Assembly (NCBI GenBank): GCA_000004695.1
Contig: CM000154.2
Location: 160,001-224,000 of the forward strand
Source: Dictyostelium discoideum
Taxonomy: Eukaryota
DNA: 64,000 bases
Reading direction: 5' to 3'
Below, one piece after another: positions 39,757 through 56,000 of the stretch. The translations under genes and the position numbers were made by a program. Numbering within the stretch: position 1 is the stretch's first letter; every line of letters starts with the position of its first letter. Under the pieces are notes generated by a model. That model saw only the letters and a list, made by a program, of their open reading frames with translations, did not search any database and was not told where the DNA came from.

Positions 39757-42700
39757 TTAATTGTCATAAATAAATTTTATGTTATCCAAAAATAATGATG
39801 GTTGATTTAATTCTAAAGAGTTAATAATTGATAATCCATCAAAAGATGAAATGAGATGGATATGATTTTCAGGTAAAAGATTTTTTAAATTTTCAAATAA
39901 AATCCTGACCAAAACCCACGAGTTTTTTTTAAAATAATTTTTATCAATTGCAAAGGGCTGAGATTTTAATTGATTGGAATTGATAGAATAAAAAAGTTGG
40001 ATTGAAATTCTTTGATTTGAGTTTCTATTACCATTGACCCAAATTTCAAAATATTTTATACCAACCGACGGTATGCAATGGTTACATTTAAATTGAATTT
40101 GAGATTTTGAGGTTGGATGATAGGGAAGGTATGCATTACCACGATATGCATATTCACTATTATGGATTATTGATTTATCCATTTGAAATGAATTTTCAAA
40201 TTTTCTATTCACCACTTCATCGAATAGAGTGAAACTACTTCCATATGCCAATGATTGACAATCACCTGTTACTCTACCACTATTTTTACCACTAATTTTT
40301 ATAACCAACTCTTCACAACCATATTCTGGGCAATAATTTAAATGATCTTTTGAATTGTATTGATAATACATTATATAGAGCATTGATGTAATTTCATTGA
40401 AATAATAAGTTGATTCTGAAATTAAATTCATTGAAAATGTTGGATATAATTCTTCAACAAAATTACTATTACCATAGGTACCATTAACAGTTTTCAATAC
40501 CTTCAAATTTATTCCTTTTGAAATACCAATACATATACCAAATGTAAATTTCTCACTTTGTTTCCAATTCATTGGTTGAACCCTAAGTATTGGTGGTGTT
40601 GGATGATTTGGGAAATGAAAATCATAATGATGATTTTTAAAAACTAAAAATTGAAATCTATTTCTTGGTGAGTGATTTGGTAAACCAATTTGTTCAATTT
40701 TTTGATTTTCAATATTATCTCTAATTGCAACAACACTTGATGATAATGATAGATAATTTGTAGAGTTTGTATCATCATTACATATATAAATTTGTCTTGT
40801 ATCTTCTTTACAAATTAATGCGTCCCATGGTTTTTTATAATAGCAATTATTTGTTGAATAGAATAATAAATTTCTAACTAAAATTGAATTTGATAATTTT
40901 GTAGTACTACCATCTAAATCTCTTAATGTTGAAATTTTATCACCATCCATTAAACTTTGTTCAAAATGAATTTCTTTATCAACATTTATATATTTTATAT
41001 TTTTTATAGTTGTTTCACTTGATGATTGCCAATCGTTAAATCTTAAGAAACCAATTGCACTTGAATTTCTAAATAGTGGTGGTAAACTTTTAAATTCTGA
41101 GAATACCATTGAATCTAGTGAAATTGTACCATCATAAATTTCAAATCCTCTTATTGGCATTAACCCATTCTCACCATATGGATTGGTCCTACCATTAACA
41201 ATTGGAATATTATTTGATTGCTGACCAATATTATCACTCTCACCAACTATTAAAGATTTATAAATATATTGACCAACATTTTGGTCTCCAGGAATTGTAC
41301 CTTCACTTGCAAATGTAAAACCAATTGCATTGTCAGCAATTTTAAAATTTTTCATAAATAAAAATCCACCCCTTGCCCAACAACCTCTCCATTTATTTTT
41401 ATAAATTGTTGCACCATTAAATATTGAAGGTGAGGGTTTTGAATTTGGATTTTTAGGATTTGATCTTGGTTTATATCTTGCATTTATCATTGAATTTAAT
41501 TGTTGAGGTTGAGTTTTACTTGGCGGAGTTAATTTAACACCACCATCAATTTGAATACCATTTGTGCACGAATGAACATTATTATTATAAAATTTCTTTA
41601 CAGGTATTAAATAAGGTTTAATATTATATTTTATACCTCTTTCATGACTTAAACCACTTGGATAATCCGAAAATAAATACCAAATACCGGTTGAATCAGA
41701 ACCCGATGCAACATTATCAATTAAGGTATTCCAAGGATTTGATATCCAAAAGGTTGAAACTGCATTACATTCTGTGCATTGTGTTGGATTACCATTGAAA
41801 TCATTTGGTTGAATTCTAGAACACATATCACATGATCTGTCATGAGGAAATAATAAACCATATCTAGTGACAGCACCTAAATTATGAGAGAATACATTAT
41901 CCATTTCAATACCATCACATAACATATAGCAATGACCAATTGAATCGAATCCAATATTATCATGAATTAATAATCCATCAGTGGAATGAACGACATAACA
42001 TCTTGAAAAAGATTTATGTACTGAACAATGTTTAATATATGCTGGATTTTCATAGCCACCCAATTCATCTACTCTATCACAAAGATGAAAATGAATTGGA
42101 TATCTAGAAACTACATGTGATTGTCCAACATTAAATAATTCAATGCCAAAGAAATGTGCATTTACAAAACCTTTTCGAATCATTATATGAGCACCAAATG
42201 AATCAAATGGAAAGAAATCACAAACTAATTTATTATTTACACAAGTTTTACCAACTTGTCCTTGAATTTTAATATTTCTAGTTAACAATGCAACTTCAGC
42301 TCTTTCATCAACACCTTTTGTAATTGAACCCCAATGAAGATATTTTATTGGATTTTTTAATTTAATTTGATTTGTTTTACATGTTGAACATTTAACAATA
42401 AAATTGGTTTCACTCTGTTCCATATCATAATCTGTACTTGTTATTAATATCTCTGATCCAATTGGCCAATCATTGACATTATCCAATAATGTTAAAATGT
42501 TTTTATTTGAATTAAAAGTTGATGGTGAAATTGTAGAGATTAATTTTGTCCAAGTTGTTTTAGTCACTTCACTATGAAGTTCAATTGTACCACCATTATC
42601 AATACCAATTACTTTTTGACCATATTCATTACCATTAATTGTTTGATTTATTTCAGTATAAATTGAATCACCAATTAGAGTTATTGTTGCTTTATATTTG

Positions 42701-43056
42701 AATTTACATTGTTCACTTCCAATAATTAGTTGACCACCATCATAAATAAGTATTGCTTTTACTCTCAATTCTAAATTATTTATATGCTTCCATACTAACA
42801 TTCCTTTATCAAAAATCCTAATAACATCTAAATCTGGTGGTTTAATATCCATTAAAATCGGTGTTGTAATATTAATTGATTCTCCTTTAATTGGTAATTT
42901 CAATTTTTTCCAACTTTTATAATTTGACCATTTTTTTAAATTTGGAATTTCATCTGGACATTTAATTAAATTAAAGTTATCATTTCCATCTATAACATAA
43001 TTTTGTATTAATATTAAAAAAATAATTAAAATTAATATTAAATTAAAAGACATCAT
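39757..43056 (-). CDS. Secreted G8-domain protein with a right-handed parallel beta-helix (PbH1) region, CEMIP / TMEM2 / fibrocystin-L-like.
   Basis: Single 1099-codon exon. Signal peptide MMSFNLILILIIFLILIQNYV. The N-terminal G8 pattern reads KKWSNYKSWKKLKLPIKGESINITTPILMDIKPPDLDVIRIFDKGMLVW...LRVKAILIYDGGQLIIGSEQCKFKYKATITLIG. Glycine/asparagine-rich repeats of beta-helix type follow (HFHLCDRVD..., IHDNIGFDSIGHCYMLCDGIEMDNV...). Confidence 0.6.
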   Translation of the reverse strand: MMSFNLILILIIFLILIQNYVIDGNDNFNLIKCPDEIPNLKKWSNYKSWKKLKLPIKGESINITTPILMDIKPPDLDVIRIFDKGMLVWKHINNLELRVKAILIYDGGQLIIGSEQCKFKYKATITLIGDSIYTEINQTINGNEYGQKVIGIDNGGTIELHSEVTKTTWTKLISTISPSTFNSNKNILTLLDNVNDWPIGSEILITSTDYDMEQSETNFIVKCSTCKTNQIKLKNPIKYLHWGSITKGVDERAEVALLTRNIKIQGQVGKTCVNNKLVCDFFPFDSFGAHIMIRKGFVNAHFFGIELFNVGQSHVVSRYPIHFHLCDRVDELGGYENPAYIKHCSVHKSFSRCYVVHSTDGLLIHDNIGFDSIGHCYMLCDGIEMDNVFSHNLGAVTRYGLLFPHDRSCDMCSRIQPNDFNGNPTQCTECNAVSTFWISNPWNTLIDNVASGSDSTGIWYLFSDYPSGLSHERGIKYNIKPYLIPVKKFYNNNVHSCTNGIQIDGGVKLTPPSKTQPQQLNSMINARYKPRSNPKNPNSKPSPSIFNGATIYKNKWRGCWARGGFLFMKNFKIADNAIGFTFASEGTIPGDQNVGQYIYKSLIVGESDNIGQQSNNIPIVNGRTNPYGENGLMPIRGFEIYDGTISLDSMVFSEFKSLPPLFRNSSAIGFLRFNDWQSSSETTIKNIKYINVDKEIHFEQSLMDGDKISTLRDLDGSTTKLSNSILVRNLLFYSTNNCYYKKPWDALICKEDTRQIYICNDDTNSTNYLSLSSSVVAIRDNIENQKIEQIGLPNHSPRNRFQFLVFKNHHYDFHFPNHPTPPILRVQPMNWKQSEKFTFGICIGISKGINLKVLKTVNGTYGNSNFVEELYPTFSMNLISESTYYFNEITSMLYIMYYQYNSKDHLNYCPEYGCEELVIKISGKNSGRVTGDCQSLAYGSSFTLFDEVVNRKFENSFQMDKSIIHNSEYAYRGNAYLPYHPTSKSQIQFKCNHCIPSVGIKYFEIWVNGNRNSNQRISIQLFYSINSNQLKSQPFAIDKNYFKKNSWVLVRILFENLKNLLPENHIHLISSFDGLSIINSLELNQPSLFLDNIKFIYDN

Positions 43057-44022: not shown

Positions 44023-45085
44023 ATGAAATCAAATAAAACCATTTTTTTAATTTTATTATTTTTAATAAATTTTAATTCAATTTATTCATTCAATTTTAAA
44101 AAAGAAATTAAAATATCAAATGATAAAATAAATTTACCAACTTATAACCCATGGATATTTCAAGATAGATTTAATTTATATTCAATTTTAATCAATTCAA
44201 CCAATATTCCAGTATTTGGCGAAGATAATTCAAATAATTGTTTACATGGTCTTCAATTACAATTTGAATGGCAAAATAGATCAGGAAGATTAGAAATCAA
44301 TCAAGGACATGTAAACACAAAATCTTGGTGGGGTATTTTTTTATTTTTTCAATTTTTTTTATTTTTAAATAATTATAATAAATAAATTAAAATAATTAAT
44401 AATTATAATTATAGGTGATATGAATTATTATTTATCAATTATTCCATATTTATCAGCTATGAAAATGGGGTTAGTACCAGTTGTTGAAATTGTAAGTATT
44501 AATGATCAAAGATTTTGTTCGACCTATGAAGATTGTGATCAAGAAGTATTGAATAATTGGGATAATTTCTTTCAACAAATTATCAATATTAGAAACAATG
44601 GTAGCGAAGGTGATGATCAACAACTTTTGAAATTTATGTGGACAGCTCATATTGGTAGTATTGATAAGGCAACAAAATTATTTACAGATTCATTATTATT
44701 ATTACCAAAAAATGAATTAAGATTTGGAAATGGTTGGGCACATTTTGTTGATGTTATTGCAACTGTAAACTTTAACACCAACTATTCAACAGTTTATCAT
44801 TTAGGTCAACAATTACCTCCAATCATGTTAAATAGTAATGATACTCATCCATCCTCAATAGAATCATTCACAAAAGAACAAAGAAATGTAGTTTTAACAA
44901 TGTATGAAATTAATGACCTCTCTTCCAATAATTTAGTTTGGAATTCTTTTATGTACCTTTTAAAGAAAATGACAAAAAATGAAATTTGTAGAAATTTAAT
45001 AAATAATGAAATTAATATTTTCTTAAATTCACCTGTTCCAACTATTATTGAAATTTTATTCGATATTTTAACAAATAATTGTTAA
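44023..45085 (+). CDS. Secreted protein of unknown function. join(44023..44332,44415..45085).
   Basis: Signal peptide MKSNKTIFLILLFLINFNSIYS. The donor is G|GTATTT and the acceptor aattatag. There are N-glycosylation sequons and several Cys residues. I recognise no family. Confidence 0.5.
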
Positions 45086-45199: not shown

Positions 45200-46158
45200 T
45201 TAAATATAATAATAATAAAATATTGGAATATCACAATAATAAATTGAACAATAAAACTTTGGATCATTAAAAGAAATTAAAGATAAACCATTTGTACAAT
45301 TTGGAGTTTGAATTGGTTCACAACCTAATGCAATTACAATTCCAGTTGGTGGTGAACATTTTGATAATGGATCAATTCTATTTCTTTTTACAATAAAGTA
45401 TGGATTAAAATTTGTGGGTTCTGGAAATTCTGAATAACAAAATTCAACTTTTGAATACATTAATATTATTTTTTGATTATAATAAATTTCATTTAAAGAT
45501 GATGATGATGATGTTAATTTCATAACAAGAATTGAATTATCTAAACCAATATCAGAATTATACCATTGATTATCAAAACCTTCTAATTCTCTATAAGGAC
45601 TATTTAATGATTTGTTATCAATATCATATTTTTTACCATTTTTTAAACTTTTATATAGTTTTTCTTTATCATTGTACTTATAATAATCAATACTAGTATC
45701 ACCATCAAATATTTTTCCTTTTTGATGATTTATTATTGTTGTTTGTATTGGTTGATAAATTCCAATTATATTTATAATACTTTCATTATCATCAATAATG
45801 ATTGCTTCTACAATTGATGAATCTAAATTATCATTTAAAAAATTAAAATCCATTCCTCTTGGTAAATTTATTGATTGATTATTAAACTTATATTCTTTTG
45901 GATTTTCTTGACTAATTGATTTAAATTCATATTTTTCTAAACAATTTTTTATTTTTATTTTATTTTTTTTTATTAATAATAATAATAATTAACATTTTAA
46001 TTTTATAAATATTTTGATGATAATAATAATTTCAATTACCATTAAATTTATAAAAGAAATAACCTTCTATTGTTGAATTATTGACTATATTAAATTTATT
46101 ATTTGCTTTAGCTATTGATAATATAATAAAAAGAAAAATTATAATTTTAAAATTAATC

Positions 46159-46457: not shown

Positions 46458-46495
<38 letters not shown>

Positions 46496-46704
46496 AGTTA
46501 ATTTTAATTAATTTTTTATTTTTATAATTTTATTTTTTTTTTAATTTTTTATTTTCTCAATTGTAAATTTCAAATTAAAAAAAAAAAAAAAAAACATTGT
46601 TGTTGGTATCCAAATAAACAAAACCAAACAAATAAAAATAATATTAATACAAAAAAAAAAATAATAAAAAAAAATAATAATAATAATAACAATAATAAAA
46701 ATAA

Positions 46705-49270
46705 ATGATTGAAAATAATAAAGAAATTACACTTGATATAATCAAACTATTACCAAAAGCTGAACTTCATAGACATTTAGATGGTTCAATTAGAATTTCA
46801 ACATTATTAGAATTAGCCAAAGAACAAAATGTTGAATTACCAACCTATGATCAAAATGAATTGGCAAAATTAATTCATAAAGATGAGAATTGTAGTGGTT
46901 TAGTAAACTTTTTAGAAGCTTTCCAATATACTTGTTCTGTTTTACAACATGCATATGCTATCACAAGAGTATTTTATGAAATGTGTGAAGATGCTGTTGC
47001 AGATGGAGGTAAATAATTTCTTTAATCTTTTTTTTTTTTTTTTTTCCCACTAAAATTAAAATTTAAATAATATATTTTACCAAAAAAAAAAAAAAAATAA
47101 ATAATAGTTAGCTATTTAGAAATTCGTTTCTCTCCAGTACTTCATACAAGTTTTGGATTAAGTTTATCAGAAGTTATGGAAGCAGTTTGTGATGGTATGG
47201 CCATAGCAGAGTTAAATCTTCCAATAAAAGCTAGAATTATTGTTTGTGGTTTACGTCATTTAGATCCATCAATTTCCAAAGATTTAGCTGAAATCACTTG
47301 GCGTTATAGACATAAAGGTGCAATTGGTATGTATTTTCTTATTATTTAATTTTAATAAAAATAATAAATTCTAATTATTATTTTTTATTTTTTTTTATTT
47401 TTATTTTTATTTTTTTTTATTTTTATTTTTTTTTATTTTTATTTTTATTTTTTTTTTAAAAAATAATTATAAAGCATTTGATTTAGCAGGACCAGAAGAC
47501 GGATTTTCAAGTAAACATCATAAAGAAGCATTTTCAATTATAAGAAATAAAGGTATTAATTGTACATTACATAGTGGTGAAGATTCAAATTGGACAAGTG
47601 TTGCAGATTCAATTCATCATTGTGGAGCACATCGTATTGGTCATGGTATTGCAATTCAACAGAATGAAGAATTATTAAATCATGTTGTTAATAGAAGAAT
47701 TCCAATTGAATGTTGTATTACAAGTAATTATCAAATCAAAGCCATTAGTAATGCTAGTGAACATCCAATTCGTAAATATTTCGATAGTGGTGCTATTGTA
47801 TCAATTTGTTGTGACAATTGTACAATGAGTAATATTACATTATCTGGTGAATATAAATTAGCGATTGATACATTTAATTTTAAAGTTGAGGAAGTGATAC
47901 GTTTAATTGATTATTCATTCGCTTCATCATTTATTGATCCACCATTGAAAATTAATATTCGTAGAGAAAGTTTTAAAAAAGCATTAAAGATATTCCAAAC
48001 CAATGGTTATGACATTAGTGGAGTTATTGAAAATAAATTTTACTATTTCGAAGAGATTGGATTGGATGTAGAATTGGAAATTCAAAATAATCTTGCAAAT
48101 AATTTTTCATTGGGTAAAAATGTAATTAGAAATTATCCACAAATTACATTGGAACTTTTAGAAAATCTTCCAAAATCAGATTTACATTGTAGATTCGATG
48201 GTGGTGTTTCAATTGAACAAATTTGGAATGAAGTTCAATTATTGGGAATTGATAAATGTGAAAAGAGTAAACAGGAATTTTTAAAGAAATTATCATCAAA
48301 ACATTTAGCTTGCTATGCAAACTTTAAAGATTTCAAAGAGTTTAAATCATTAATTCAATCATCATCTCATACACCTCAAACTATTCGTCTCTCAAAAGAA
48401 ATCATTAATTTATTATTACAAACACCTGAACAAATTAATAGAGCATTCGATGATATCATTAAAGTTGCCCTAAAGGACAAAGTTCAATATTTAGAATTAA
48501 TGATTCGTCCAAATTCTCACTCTAGAAACGGGTTAACTAAAGAGCAAGTCTTGGCATTAATCATTGAAAATAAGGACAAATGGGAAAAAAGCTCAAGCAT
48601 TAAAATTGGTTTAGTGGTTTTCTCTTCTTCAACCTCTGATGATCCAATTGAAACTTTAGATTCTGCTAGATTAGCAATTGCAAATAGAAATTCAGGTGTT
48701 ATTGGTTTTGGTATTTTCGGTGCTGATCCAATCTCTCCAACTGAATCTCGTCACTTTTCTCAAACTTTTTCATTATTAAAAGAAAATAATTTCAATTTAG
48801 TACAATTCGCTGGTAAATCCGATGTTGAATCACTCATTAGTACAATTCATTGCTCTGGTTCAACAAGATTATCAGGTGCTTTCCAATCTCATAAAATTCC
48901 ACGTTTAATGTCTTATTTAGGTAATTATTCAATCCCTGTTGAAATTTCATTAACTGAAAAATTAAAATCCTTTACAAGTGACGATCTCTCATTTACAACA
49001 CCCATTAGACATTTACTCGATGGTAAATGTCCAGTTGTAATTTGTTCATTCCGTTCATCTCTTTACCCATATTCACGTAGTAAAATGTACTATAAAATTG
49101 TAAAGAATGCAAAATTAGATTTTAAACAAGTCGTTCGTTTATTAAAAAATCCATTTGCTTATAATTTCCAATCTCATCAACAAAGAATCGAATTGGTTCA
49201 ACAATTTAATAAATTATCAAAAGAATATTTAAATTCTGTTAATATTAATTATTCAAATATTATAATTTAA
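46705..49270 (+). CDS. ada: Adenosine deaminase (ADA family), about 773 aa, consisting of a canonical ADA domain followed by a second, catalytically degenerate ADA-like domain. join(46705..47008,47108..47326,47475..49270).
   Basis: Domain 1: LPKAELHRHLDGS (metal-binding HxH), ...G|VSYLEIRFSPVLH..., AFDLAGPEDG, HSGED (HAGE-type), AHRIGHG, CCITSNYQ, SICCDNC(T)MS (D-D pair region). Domain 2 (about residues 400-773) repeats the layout but with LPKSDLHCRFDGG (HxH lost), FAGKSD (H and E lost) and TRLSGA (H lost), so it cannot bind the catalytic zinc. The introns run from G|GTAAAT to taatag and from G|GTATGT to ttataaag. Confidence 0.75.
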
Positions 49271-49575: not shown

Positions 49576-50228
49576 TTATTGGTTTATATTTTTATTATTT
49601 TTAAAAACTTTTATAACATTTGATTCGTCAGTAGTGGTGGAGTTTGTAATTTCAACAGGTTTCCATTTTCTGACAGTAATATTTCCCAAATCACTACTAT
49701 CACTATTACTATTACTATCACTATCACTATCACTATCACTACTATCTTCAGGATCATCACCACCTTGTTTCTCTAAAAGTAATGCCATTGGATTAATTGA
49801 TCTATTGTAGCGATTAAAGGTTTGAGTATTAAATCTATCTAAATCATTATTACTTTGACGATTTACTCTTCCATTAATAAAAGAATGATAATGATAATCT
49901 TGGTCGTTATTATTATTATTTTCATTATTATTTTCAAATTCCAATAATTCAGGTTCATCTTGATCATATATTTTAAACTCTGAAAATTTTGATAAAGTAT
50001 TATGATAAAAATCCATCATAATATCTTTATTCTTTTCAGATTCAATTGTTGATATTTCTTCTTCTTCCTCTTCTTCCTCTTCTTTTACTTCTTCCAACTC
50101 TTTTTTTGTTTTATTTTGTTCATCATTAGGTTCTTGAGCTAACGATATTTCTATTTCTTTATTTAAAAAACAAACTTTCCCTTTGTTATTTTTATTATTA
50201 CTATTATTATTATTATTATTATTATTAC

Positions 50229-50316
<88 letters not shown>

Positions 50317-50661
50317 TAAATTTTTGATATTTAAACTACTGAAACTATTACTACCAAAACTGCTAAAACTATAAGATTTTTCATTAAAGACTTCACTTAT
50401 TGTGGTTGAGGTTGAAATAGTGGTAGTTGATGATTGTGATAATGAAGTTTCTTCATAAAATTCTAAAAATAAATTAAAAGAGTTAGAGGGAAATAATAAT
50501 AAAGTAAGGGATATAAATATATTGATAAATACTTTTTAAAGGCCTATTTAAACTTTTATAAGACTTTTTAAAACGATTTGGTGATATGGTTGCCCTTGAG
50601 GGTGAAAAGGATGATGAAAATATACAAGGTGATGATGATGTAGATGTTGAACCATTATTAC

Positions 50662-50758
<97 letters not shown>

Positions 50759-51201
50759 TTTGAAACTATTATTACATGGCGATTGATTTTGATGAAATGA
50801 ATTTGAAATTTCACTATCAAAATCTGAATCAATTTCTTTATCGTACTGTTCATAATTATTATAAGTAAATTCTTGATCAATATCATCAATACCATCATCA
50901 ATACCATCATCAATTCCATCATCAATTCCATCATCATCATCATCACCATTATTATCAGATAAAGATGAAAAGGGTAATGATGGTATTTGGTTCAAAAATG
51001 GATTATTATAAAAATTATTATTATTATTGTTATTATTGTTATTATTATTATTAAAAATATTATTGGCTTGATTGTTTTTATTTACAAATTCTAAATTGCT
51101 ATTATTTTTTAAATAGTTTTGATCATCCCTTGGTGTTAAATTATTTACTAATGTACAATCGTTATGATCAATTCTATCATTCATATTATTATGATTATTA
51201 A

Positions 51202-51255
<54 letters not shown>

Positions 51256-51557
51256 GAATATGACGATTATTATCATCATTTATGCTATGTTGATTATAGT
51301 TATGGTTATAATTGTGAATATGATGGTGATGGTTATGGTTTTTAATACTGTGGTAATTTTCTTCATTGTAATCAATGTCCTCTTCGTTTTCATCATCTAA
51401 ATAATCAATGAATCTTCTTTTTTTAGGAGTACCAGGGAATGATGATTGTTCAATTAAACTATTACTACTATTACTATTACTATGCACGATACAATTGTGA
51501 ATATTTAATATTTTCGGTACTAGTGGCCGATTATCATCATTTATATTATTATTATTA

Positions 51558-51595
<38 letters not shown>

Positions 51596-51735
51596 GCTTT
51601 CATAATTATTATCACATTCACTATCAATGATATCATCATTGTTATTAAAATTAAATTTATTATTTAAATTACTTATATTACTTAAATTATTATTTGTGCT
51701 ATCATTTTTATCATTATTATTATTATTATTATTAC

Positions 51736-51819
<84 letters not shown>

Positions 51820-51838
51820 TACTATTGTTATCATCATT

Positions 51839-51869
<31 letters not shown>

Positions 51870-51920
51870 CTGTTATTACTATTATTTTTATAATTATTAT
51901 CATTATTATTACTATTATTA

Positions 51921-51978
<58 letters not shown>

Positions 51979-52060
51979 TTATATCATTTGATTTATTACT
52001 ACTAGTTACGCCATTTGACAAAGCATTTTCATAGATTGAACTTTTTGATAGTTCCATCAA
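49576..52060 (-). CDS. Extremely Asn-rich low-complexity protein of about 820 aa, with an acidic C-terminal region. complement(join(49576..50462,50533..52060)).
   Basis: The 525-aa ORF (about 60% N from (AAT)n arrays; a (GIDD)4 repeat; a PKKRRF basic patch) ends in ...LKS|… By codon walking, the downstream frame is continuously open from 50535 to 49576 and contains the 173-aa acidic ORF; it reads ...EFYEETSLSQSSTTTIST...poly-N...KGKVCFLNKEIEISLAQEPNDEQNKTKKELEEVKE9.... A 70-nt intron (A|GTATTTAT ... ttatttttag) joins the two frames. The 'M' of the 173-aa ORF is a TTG. Confidence 0.45.
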
Positions 52061-52610: not shown

Positions 52611-52966
52611 TTAAAATGCTCGTTTTACCATATCATTTGGAGAACCAGTTTTCAAAGCTTCAATTATTACAGCCATTGGGTCATCAGAGTTACTAATTTT
52701 TAAACCAAAACCTTTTTGAGATAATCTCTTTGAAGGAGATTTTTTGAAAGCAGTAGTAATTGTTGAGAAAAGTGTGAAAAACTTTTCACAAGTGAATTTT
52801 TGTTGATTCCATTCTTGAGAAGTTATAGATAAACTACTTGATAATGGTGGAGTAATTTTATAAGATGATGAAGATGATGAAGAAGAATTTGAAAGATAAT
52901 ATTGTGGATGTAATAATGATTGTAAATTTGATTGTGAATTATTATTATTAATTATATTATTATTAC

Positions 52967-53006
<40 letters not shown>

Positions 53007-56000
53007 AATTGAACCTGTTGTTGTTGTTGTTGTTGTTGTTGTTGTAGTTGTTGTATTTCCACTTATATTATTATTATTATTGTTACTATTATTATTATTG
53101 TTATTATTATTATTATTAATAATATTTTGTTGAAATTGTTGTTGTTGATATTGTTGATATTGTTGTTGTTGATATTGTTGTAAAGTTTGATTAGTTGGAT
53201 TAAAATAATCAATGGTTTCAAATAAATATTTTTCAGTTTCCAAGAATTTCGTTTGTAAATTCTTTAAAATCAATAGAATTGTACCCATAAACTTTGGAAC
53301 GATATCAAGGAAAGGGTCATCTTTATCTGTTGTTTGTTGAATTTCATCAGACATTAAAACGATCTCTGAATAGTCTTGAAGTAATTTAGAGACAGAGGTG
53401 CCAACATCGGTGAAATTGATGAGAGATGCATTTGGAACATGAGCCAACTCCAAATGGATACTAGTATTACTATTACCTTTCATTGGAGATTGTTGATATA
53501 ATGTTTTTATAGCGAAATCCAATAAAGAACCACTATTGCTATTATCTTTAATTTCAATCATTTTACTTAGTGACTCTAAATTGAAACCATCGGATTGACC
53601 ACGATAAAGATGACCACCATTTAAGTAATTACCCAATTGAAGTAGGAGAGAGAATAAACAATTGATGGTGATACTTGTACGTAGCTCTTTACAAGCCAAC
53701 AGTACGGTATCAATTGATTCTATGATTGATTTAAGACTATCCTCGATCTTTAACATAAATTCCCAACATCTTAAACGATGTTTAATCATTGGGAACCCAT
53801 CAATCATTAAACACCATCTCTCTGGTTTATCGAGTATCACCTCATTGGAATGTAACTCGTGTATTGAAGCCAACTCTTCAGATGTTGGGAAATTTGATAT
53901 TATACTTGACACACCATCCAATGAAAGTTTATTCGAATCTAAATTTCTAATTGCTCTAATTAAAATATCATCAGATGGTAATTTACCACACATTACAATG
54001 ATTGCATTTGATCTCTTTTGTGATAAAACACTAATAACTTTTTGAATTGGTTTCGATTTAATTGGTCCACCACCTGAAATTGATGTTCCACTACCAACTG
54101 GTGACCCACTAAAGGATACAATTCTCTCTGTATATAATGAAAATAAATCTACAAATAATTCTTCTTCAAATGTAACTTCTGGTAAATATGAATTCCAAAT
54201 TGTTTTTTTACCTTCACTAAAAATAAAAAAATAAAAAAAATAAATTAAAAATAAATTAATATATATATACTATTTTTTTTCAAATTTAATTAAAAAAAAA
54301 AACACAACTTACAATTGTGAATTTAAAATTCTAGTCCAATGTAATGGTTTCATTCTTTTTGAAGGAGTAATTGGTGATTTTGTTGGTTGTAATTTATATT
54401 TAATTGGTTCTTCATGATTACTACTTGCACCATTTAATGATATTTCATGAATTTCATCTTCATTTGATTTTTCACTTTTAACAATTGGTGATAAATCTTT
54501 AATTGTACAATTATTATTATTATTATTATTATTACTTTTAATTATATTATTATTTGTATTATTATTATTATTGTTATTATTATTTAAAGTATTTGAAATT
54601 GTAATTGGTGATAATAAACAAGATAAATTTGGTTTTGGCGTTGATTGTTTATTTGATTGCTGTTGTTGTTGTTGTTGTTCTTTTTCTTTTTCTTTTTCTT
54701 TTTCTTTTTCTTTTTCTTTTTCTTTTTCTTTTTCTTTTTGTAATTGTAATGGTGGAGTTTGTTGAGATTGTTGTGGTGGATGATTTGGTGTTGTTGAAGG
54801 TACAATTAAAGTTGTTGGTTGTGATATATGAATTGGTGTTGAAGAAGTTGAAATACTAGTACAACTATTTGTATCATTATTTCCATCATAAGTATCTTCC
54901 AAAGTTGAAGAATCGAAAAGATCCGAAGTATTAGGAGATCTAACATACATTGATTTTCTAAATGCATTGGTAAATTTATCATTTCTTTTTAAGAATTGAA
55001 GATTTGTTGGAGAATCACCAATCATTTCTAATTTTCTTTGAGAATATTCATCGTAACGTTCGGTGGGTGCTCTATAGTTTATGTAGGAACCATTTTCAAT
55101 GGCTGATTTAATTGCATTTCTTAGGAATTTCAATTCACTAGTTAATAGAGAGATTAGTGGTTGTTGTTCACGGAATTGGTGCAATTGAAATTCCAATTCT
55201 TGAGTTGACAATTGACGAGTCAAAGTTCTCTTCCTACCAGAACCATCGATACCAAAACCAGAGTTTGCTTGGAAACGTGCTATCTGAGTACGAAAATCCG
55301 AATGAGTTACATGTTCTTGTGATTTCAATATCTTTATAATACCCAATTGTTGCCAACGTGATAGTAGTTTCTCTGATTTTCTTGGATTTGGTGCATTATC
55401 CAATAGACAATTGAATAGGGTCAATGTATTCAATTGGGTTTCCATATCACCCGAGGAGAGTAATGTAATTAGGTTACTATAGGCTGGTGTGGAGGTTTCT
55501 TGTGCATGATTTTTGGCTGAACGATGAACCAATTGAAATCCATCGAAATTGCAAACACAAAACAATAGCTCTATAGCTTGTCTGCATACACTTGGCAATA
55601 CCCCCACCGAACAAACCAATGAATATAGCTTATCTATTAGCTGTGGTCGACTCATTACCTCTTCCAATCCACTATTATATCCCATAAAACATCGTAGTGC
55701 TGTCAATGCATACGATTGTGTATTGCCTCTACTCTTTATAATCACTGCCAATAATTGATTGATTCCTCCCTTTATTATAAATTCTTCAACATATTCTACG
55801 TCTTTCATTTGATAACGAATATTGAATATCGTATCTTTGATGTGTGGTGAAGTTGGTTCAATCTTTGTCAATTGATCCACCACCCTATCTGCTATTGCAT
55901 GTGGTTTCATACGTAGTATGAAATAACTTTTCTCTGCTTCAACTAATCTCTCTGGTGTTAGAAATGAATCTTCAACATATGCCAATGTAAATGGATTCTG

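Follow-up and report, generated by a model that had tools for sequence, protein, structure and literature searches.

A two-barrel adenosine deaminase in Dictyostelium discoideum whose second barrel has lost most of its zinc site and is probably non-catalytic

The classical adenosine deaminases (ADA; ADA1 and bacterial Add, families PF00962 and TIGR01430) are single barrels of approximately 330-360 residues in which the catalytic machinery is present and which carry the second Asp of a TDD motif. Here we describe the ada gene of Dictyostelium discoideum, located within a window of 64,000 nucleotides (positions 160,001 to 224,000 of the forward strand of contig CM000154.2, assembly GCA_000004695.1), whose product, unlike these enzymes, consists of two barrels. 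The first (domain 1) has Asn in place of the second Asp, and the second (domain 2) lacks the catalytic machinery. Among the matches listed, the closest single-domain relatives of domain 1 are bacterial proteins of about 430 residues with 32-45% identity to it, for example those of Chondromyces crocatus, Gemmatimonadota and Bradymonadales (P0110-P0121). These TDN-type ADAs resemble domain 1 in having a TDN or TDS motif and a C-terminal extension past the barrel, but they differ from the tandem ADA in having one barrel, a complete catalytic set and no pseudo-domain. When the PDB was searched by fold with the full-length model, no entry was found to span more than one barrel (template modelling score for the query, TMq, at most 0.42).

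The combination of an active deaminase domain with an impaired paralogous one that contributes binding or architecture is familiar from the double-domain APOBEC3 proteins and from ADAT2/ADAT3 (Tad2/Tad3). Unlike the tandem ADA, these proteins have the cytidine-deaminase fold and act on nucleic acids, so that they serve as an analogy only. Within the amidohydrolase superfamily, we regard as the nearest precedent the dihydroorotase (DHOase)-like domain of fungal Ura2, a CAD-like multidomain enzyme of nucleotide metabolism in which this defective domain is kept, apparently for architecture (PMC8659124). Like domain 2 of the tandem ADA, it is an amidohydrolase-fold domain that has lost catalysis and is retained in a larger enzyme; unlike domain 2, it belongs to the DHOase family and is fused to the non-homologous carbamoyl phosphate synthetase and aspartate transcarbamoylase rather than to its own active paralogue.

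When the three exons of ada are joined at their GT..AG introns, they give a coding sequence of 2319 nt with no internal stop that encodes 772 residues (Table 1). An exact-sequence look-up found the product to be identical to XP_637270.1 (Q54KF3, ADA_DICDI), the "Probable adenosine deaminase" of D. discoideum AX4, which confirms the gene model. Both introns split the part of the gene that codes for domain 1, and exon 3, whose frame is open from the acceptor at 47475, runs uninterrupted through both domains. A preliminary description of this locus had placed a second, ADA-like domain at 47825-49270, an open reading frame (ORF) of 481 residues. This ORF is the portion of exon 3 that lies 3' of an internal in-frame ATG. 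The domain is indeed present there, but the barrel proper only starts at about residue 396-406 (approximately position 48137), and the first 105 or so residues of the ORF represent the end of domain 1 and the linker.

The same description held that the C-terminal half repeats the landmarks of ADA in order, and the assignment to the ADA fold was upheld when this half was searched alone. Residues 351-772 matched PF00962 over profile positions 1-327 of 330 (E=1.5e-20, 74 bits, gathering threshold 27). Compared by BLASTP, the first 350 residues and the last 422 were 24% identical over 352 columns (E=1e-25), and when profiles of the two halves, drawn from 76 homologues, were aligned with each other, the probability was 100% (E=1.9e-76, 351 columns). 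Whether made by profile, by profile-profile comparison or by fold, the searches all placed this half in the ADA family specifically. With TIGR01430, the NCBIfam equivalog, domain 1 scored 290.4 bits and passed the cut-off of 216.55, whereas domain 2 scored 73.2 bits and fell below it.

The motif pairs quoted in the preliminary description align as it claimed (domain 1/domain 2: LHRHLDG/LHCRFDG, LHSGED/QFAGKSD and HRIGHG/TRLSGA). A further pair that was absent from it, ICCDN/ICSFR, adds the loss of the fourth zinc ligand, D288 of CCDN being replaced by F700 of CSFR. Domain 2 is therefore without three of the four zinc ligands (His to R414, His to F619 and Asp to F700), and both catalytic residues are replaced (Glu to K622 and His to G642). 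The earlier statement that every ligand and catalytic residue is replaced was right for R414, F619, K622 and G642, but it went too far for the first His of HxH, which is kept as H412. Since domain 2 has the ADA-type (beta/alpha)8 fold but fails the defining catalytic features, it is best classed as a pseudo-deaminase domain and not as an ADA. Judged by these residues, it would be unable to bind the catalytic zinc or to activate water, and is probably inactive.

The loss extends over the whole family. In the alignment of 76 members, the ligand and catalytic columns of domain 1 are canonical in 75-76 (mouse ADA numbering: zinc ligands H15, H17 and H214 each His in 75, and zinc ligand D295 and catalytic E217 and H238 unchanged in all 76). 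In domain 2, the ligand columns read H36/D28/N9 at H15, R in 71 of 76 at H17, F40/S10/V9/A5 at H214 and F38/I26/L9 at D295, and the catalytic columns read E29/K9/R7/L6 at E217 and G in 73 of 76 at H238. The position equivalent to D296 reads R28/H24/D7/K6. Not one of the 76 aligned members has kept an intact site in domain 2, and no more than one of the four ligand columns is ligand-capable in any of them. It had been considered that the ligands might be conserved at shifted positions, but no conserved set was found in register or nearby. Since no member retains an intact second site, catalysis was presumably lost before these lineages diverged.

Table 1. Features of the D. discoideum ada gene, its product and its neighbours, by position in the window.
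Feature	Position	Strand	Basis
ada coding sequence, three exons	46705-47008, 47108-47326, 47475-49270	+	splice reconstruction and translation; 772 codons plus stop
Domain 1 (residues 17-337), ADA barrel	46753-47962	+	PF00962, TIGR01430, ligand columns
H22/H24, zinc ligands HxH of domain 1	46768-46776	+	
H207 (zinc ligand) and E210 (catalytic) of domain 1	47570-47581	+	
H231, catalytic His of domain 1	47642-47644	+	
D288-N289 of domain 1; D288 is the fourth zinc ligand	47813-47818	+	
Inter-barrel linker (residues 338-395)	47963-48136	+	DSSP and pLDDT of full-length model
Domain 2 (residues 396-772), full-length ADA-fold barrel with its own C-terminal helix, putative pseudo-deaminase	48137-49267	+	
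H412-C413-R414, strand 1, in place of HxH; Arg at the second-His position	48185-48193	+	alignments
F619-A-G-K622, strand 5, in place of H-S-G-E (third zinc ligand and catalytic Glu)	48806-48817	+	alignments
S641-G642, strand 6, in place of G-H (catalytic His238 equivalent)	48872-48877	+	Gly in 73/76
C698-S-F700-R701, strand 8, in place of C-(T/C)-D-N (fourth zinc ligand Asp, purine-N7-binding position)	49043-49054	+	
Leg1-family protein fragment, ada neighbour	44420-45085	+	E=3e-83
Formin FH2 domain ORF, ada neighbour	52611-53993	-	domain match
G8/CEMIP-like beta-helix protein ORF, ada neighbour	39757-43056	-	domain match

Pfam recognises two PF00962 stretches in the full protein, which scores 360.7 bits as a whole, and the better of the two is domain 1. 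From its sequence, domain 1 is a competent-looking member of the ADA family, within the metallo-dependent hydrolase superfamily, with a predicted role as a deaminase; the role of the D. discoideum ada gene has been described as not known (PMC12711200). Alignment to 6n9m places N289 where classical ADAs carry the second Asp of TDD. Asn is found at this position in 75 of the 76 family members and also in most of the closest bacterial single-domain relatives, two of which have Ser. In mouse ADA the corresponding Asp, D296, contacts the purine N7, and with TDN in place of TDD this ADA lineage may differ in its substrate preference or pH profile.

A search with the full protein matched 144 proteins, the best 120 of which were used for distribution and lengths. 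About 95 of these 120 have at least 600 residues, and most of these have 700-900. It had been asked whether other Amoebozoa share the tandem arrangement, and this proved to be so for all sampled dictyostelids (D. purpureum, Polysphondylium violaceum, Acytostelium, Heterostelium, Tieghemostelium and Cavenderia) and for Balamuthia, Stereomyxa, Arcella, Physarum and Pelomyxa. The tandem was also found in Metamonada (Paratrimastix, Anaeramoeba, Blattamonas, Tritrichomonas and Histomonas) and in Heterolobosea (Naegleria fowleri, N. gruberi and Willaertia). Each of the six distant members tested with Pfam contained two PF00962 stretches. The homologue of the apusomonad Thecamonas (P0096) has 737 residues with a second half that aligns poorly; its domain 2 looks garbled, probably by a frameshift in the gene model, and it was left out of the 76-member alignment and counts. 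Two ada genes of Trichomonas vaginalis have been studied, "both with 733 aa" (PMC4660616), a length that fits the tandem family.

An exhaustive search with the domain 2 profile returned 48 cluster representatives at E<1e-30, most of which are tandem proteins with two stretches, and no clear stand-alone domain 2 gene was seen among the matches. Single-stretch matches of approximately 440-500 residues were considered as candidate stand-alone pseudo-ADAs; those inspected were mostly fragments without their N-terminal part, in which the sequence sets in at the end of domain 1. One tandem homologue from a Logan assembly (P0044, 1324 residues) has its ADA barrels at 531-852 and 919-1278, and its residues 208-412 (approximately) give a weak match to the PfkB carbohydrate/nucleoside kinases (25.4 bits, just below the cut-off of 25.8). 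Judged by this match, P0044 may be a purine-salvage kinase fused to a tandem deaminase.

The tandem is not an annotation artefact, since a single open exon covers both domains in D. discoideum, the arrangement recurs across independent genomes and transcriptomes, and two PF00962 stretches are found in distant members. Selection on domain 2 was estimated as the ratio of nonsynonymous to synonymous rates (dN/dS), by region, with the method of Nei and Gojobori. The orthologues were those of D. firmibasis, D. citrinum, D. dimigraforme and D. cf. discoideum, and the genes were spliced beforehand to translate exactly to the database proteins. In six pairwise comparisons dN/dS was 0.05-0.11 for domain 1 and 0.07-0.15 for domain 2, so that domain 2 is under strong purifying selection and a neutral relic is excluded. 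The view that domain 2 has no function, being either a relic in decay or a fusion created by the gene model, draws on its faster evolution, its mean identity to homologues being 33% as against 54% for domain 1. It is contradicted by the low dN/dS, the single open exon, the presence in several supergroups and the confidently folded model, and we consider it scarcely credible. Together, the dN/dS values and the confident two-barrel model argue that domain 2 has some function.

In these comparisons the part of the gene coding for domain 1 consistently had a lower synonymous rate (dS) than those coding for domain 2 and the linker; for AX4 and D. firmibasis it was 0.28, 0.58 and 1.19, respectively. 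The low value for domain 1 may be due to stronger constraint on the nucleotides of the 5' half, through codon usage or otherwise, or to the noise of a small number of sites. It implies that dN/dS for domain 1 is slightly inflated relative to that for domain 2.

Across eukaryotic supergroups, 27 columns of domain 2 are at least 90% conserved, as against 95 in domain 1. Twenty-two of the conserved columns of domain 2 share their residue with an equally conserved, aligned column of domain 1 (for example K408/K18, Q490/Q81, Y513/Y104, E515/E106, H523/H114, R639/R228, D690/D278 and C698/C286). Since the same residues are equally conserved in both domains, they are framework residues of this ADA lineage. 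This bears on the suggestion that domain 2 is still an enzyme, acting on another substrate with a metal-independent or differently liganded site. In its favour, domain 2 has nearly invariant polar residues (K408, D410, E515, H523, R639 and D690), and a metal might in principle be bound by H412 and C698. With few exceptions, however, these residues are conserved to the same degree at the aligned positions of domain 1 and so belong to the framework rather than to a new catalytic set. With so few ligand columns kept in any member, and with the general acid/base Glu and His both lost, a surviving activity of this kind seems very improbable.

The substrate-contact motifs of domain 2 are relaxed. 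The top residue reaches a frequency of only 12-59% in the equivalent of DLAG and 21-59% in that of the strand-7 TSN, whereas the corresponding positions of domain 1 are mostly 93-100% conserved, and the equivalent of HxGE is likewise far less conserved in domain 2 than in domain 1. Furthermore, the pocket positions D416, K622 and R701 differ between lineages. Both observations argue against a conserved nucleoside pocket in domain 2.

The full-length AlphaFold2 (AF2) model had a mean predicted local distance difference test (pLDDT) of 93.6 and a predicted template modelling score (pTM) of 0.92. Since domain 2 modelled alone had the same pTM, the relative orientation of the barrels is predicted confidently, and the model suggests a fixed two-barrel body. 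The linker comprises the long C-terminal helix of the first unit, short helices and one low-confidence loop at approximately residues 383-399, the only weak stretch of the full-length model; it is the fastest-evolving part of the protein, with a mean identity to homologues of 30%. Each unit consists of a barrel followed by a long C-terminal helix with a G(Y/F)-type motif at its end. The tails of the two units are homologous (hhalign 97%, E=4e-11), which means that the whole unit was duplicated. Of the consensus signatures of domain 2, nine recur in domain 1 only, seven in both domain 1 and the single-domain TDN-type proteins, five only in the latter and one only in classical ADAs. By these signatures domain 2 is placed with domain 1 and the bacterial TDN-type relatives, and not with the classical ADAs.

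Domain 2 might instead act as a platform for protein-protein interaction, recruiting the deaminase to partners or oligomers and not chiefly supporting domain 1. Mammalian ADA1 binds CD26 through its surface, pseudoenzyme domains are often scaffolds, and a conserved fold under purifying selection without catalytic constraint would fit such a role. The high pTM of the monomer, however, already accounts for a large buried interface with domain 1, conservation is concentrated in the core strands and not obviously on the surface, and no partner is known. We therefore consider an interaction platform improbable.

The conserved residues that are specific to domain 2 include R414, S641-G642, F644, K482 and R709. 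Three of these are basic (R414, K482 and R709, each conserved in at least 80%), and position 701 is basic (R/H/K) in 58 of the 76 members. K482 stands where domain 1 has F73 and aligns with what we take to be the pocket-lining Phe65 of mouse ADA; R709 stands where domain 1 has L297 and aligns with Leu304, presumably the residue that is altered in the inactivating human mutation L304R. Where the pocket used to be, such basic side chains could either fill the space left by the metal or line a new anion site. In the latter case, domain 2 could be an allosteric sensor whose rebuilt basic pocket binds an anionic metabolite (a nucleotide, phosphate or phosphorylated sugar) and tunes domain 1. Such a sensor would account for the domain 2-specific Arg at a zinc-ligand position, for the other basic residues at former pocket positions and for catalytic-face loops that are more conserved than the remainder of domain 2. 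However, the variation at the pocket positions (D416 as D/I/V/L, K622 as E/K/R/L, and the G587-G590 region) is not usual where a ligand site is conserved, the buried Arg may simply fill the place of the lost metal structurally, and no ligand is known. On balance we consider the sensor possible but rather unlikely. A bolder version, which we hold to be distinctly doubtful, is that the tandem of a live and a dead ADA is an ancient eukaryotic invention, made near the eukaryote root or spread among phagotrophic protists, in which the basic site of the dead barrel (R414, K482, R/H701 and R709) senses an anionic purine metabolite and allosterically gates the live barrel.

The explanation that we favour, and consider rather likely, is that D. 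discoideum ADA is a two-barrel enzyme that arose by an ancient internal duplication and in which the second copy is a non-catalytic structural or regulatory partner of the first. An ancestral TDN-type unit of barrel and C-terminal helix would have been duplicated in tandem. The N-terminal copy would have kept the mononuclear zinc site (H22, H24, H207 and D288) together with the catalytic Glu210 and His231, and the C-terminal copy would have lost the zinc site and the catalytic Glu and His while keeping the fold. Packed rigidly on domain 1 to form an intramolecular pseudo-dimer, domain 2 would then stabilise or position the active barrel and possibly modulate it. Several points weigh against this explanation. 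The domain 2-specific basic residues R414, K482, R709 and R/H/K701 fit a remodelled ligand site as well, and in domain 2 the loops on the catalytic face are still somewhat better conserved than the remainder (0.50 vs 0.39). The pTM score, our one gauge of rigid packing, is an indirect gauge of how the domains are packed, and only a small number of columns underlie the use of the signatures as a test for duplication. Furthermore, a scoring of the origin of domain 2 with hidden Markov models (HMMs) of domain 1, the TDN-type single-domain proteins and the "classical" ADAs was discarded as confounded, since the HMM of the classical set gave the highest score in every group, domain 1 and the TDN-type proteins themselves among them, and since that set consisted of the best matches of the domain 2 profile; the signature counts and the homology of the tails took its place.

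The gene itself has been annotated before, and standard tools suffice to find the second Pfam match. Three points appear to have gone undescribed: the probable loss of activity in the second domain, the great age and family-wide occurrence of the arrangement, and the strong selection on domain 2. We found no published description of a tandem or pseudo-ADA architecture, whether for Dictyostelium, Trichomonas, Naegleria or in general, which is a weak negative since subscription journals were mostly uncovered. Adenosine and ammonia are developmental signals in D. discoideum. The ADA isoforms otherwise annotated in this species are two tRNA deaminases and an extracellular ADGF (PMC12711200), and apart from the ada product no ADA1-type enzyme seems to be listed for it.

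The same architecture is that of the ADA of the pathogens Naegleria fowleri, Balamuthia, Histomonas and Tritrichomonas, so that half of each of these enzymes is a putative pseudo-enzyme domain that has apparently gone unstudied. Should stability or regulation depend on domain 2, constructs of domain 1 only would mislead biochemistry, and the interface between the barrels would be a parasite-specific feature, absent from the single-barrel human ADA1. The family also offers a clean case, within the amidohydrolase superfamily, of duplication, fusion and catalytic loss maintained over a very long time. If domain 2 proves to be a sensor, the enzyme would be the first of the ADA1 type with allosteric regulation, and in Trichomonas, Naegleria, Balamuthia and Histomonas it would offer a drug target of distinct structure.

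None of the neighbours of ada in the window has an evident functional tie to a deaminase. They comprise the Leg1-like, formin FH2 and CEMIP-like genes of Table 1 and two ORFs on the minus strand (45200-45853 and 49576-50097) for which no Pfam match was found. The window is very AT-rich (17-33% GC) and contains poly-Asn ORFs, as is usual for a dictyostelid. Poly-T and poly-A runs lie 5' of ada at 46460-46700, and homopolymer and low-complexity tracts at 50183-52060 include a minus-strand ORF of 525 residues that is mostly poly-Asn; low-complexity tracts of both kinds are typical of Dictyostelium intergenic and coding sequence. The AX4 protein differs from that of another D. discoideum isolate (P0004) by 11 substitutions and one Asn insertion near the N-terminus. 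Among the differences is C286S, which affects a Cys that sits two residues before the zinc-ligand Asp and is otherwise approximately 95% conserved.

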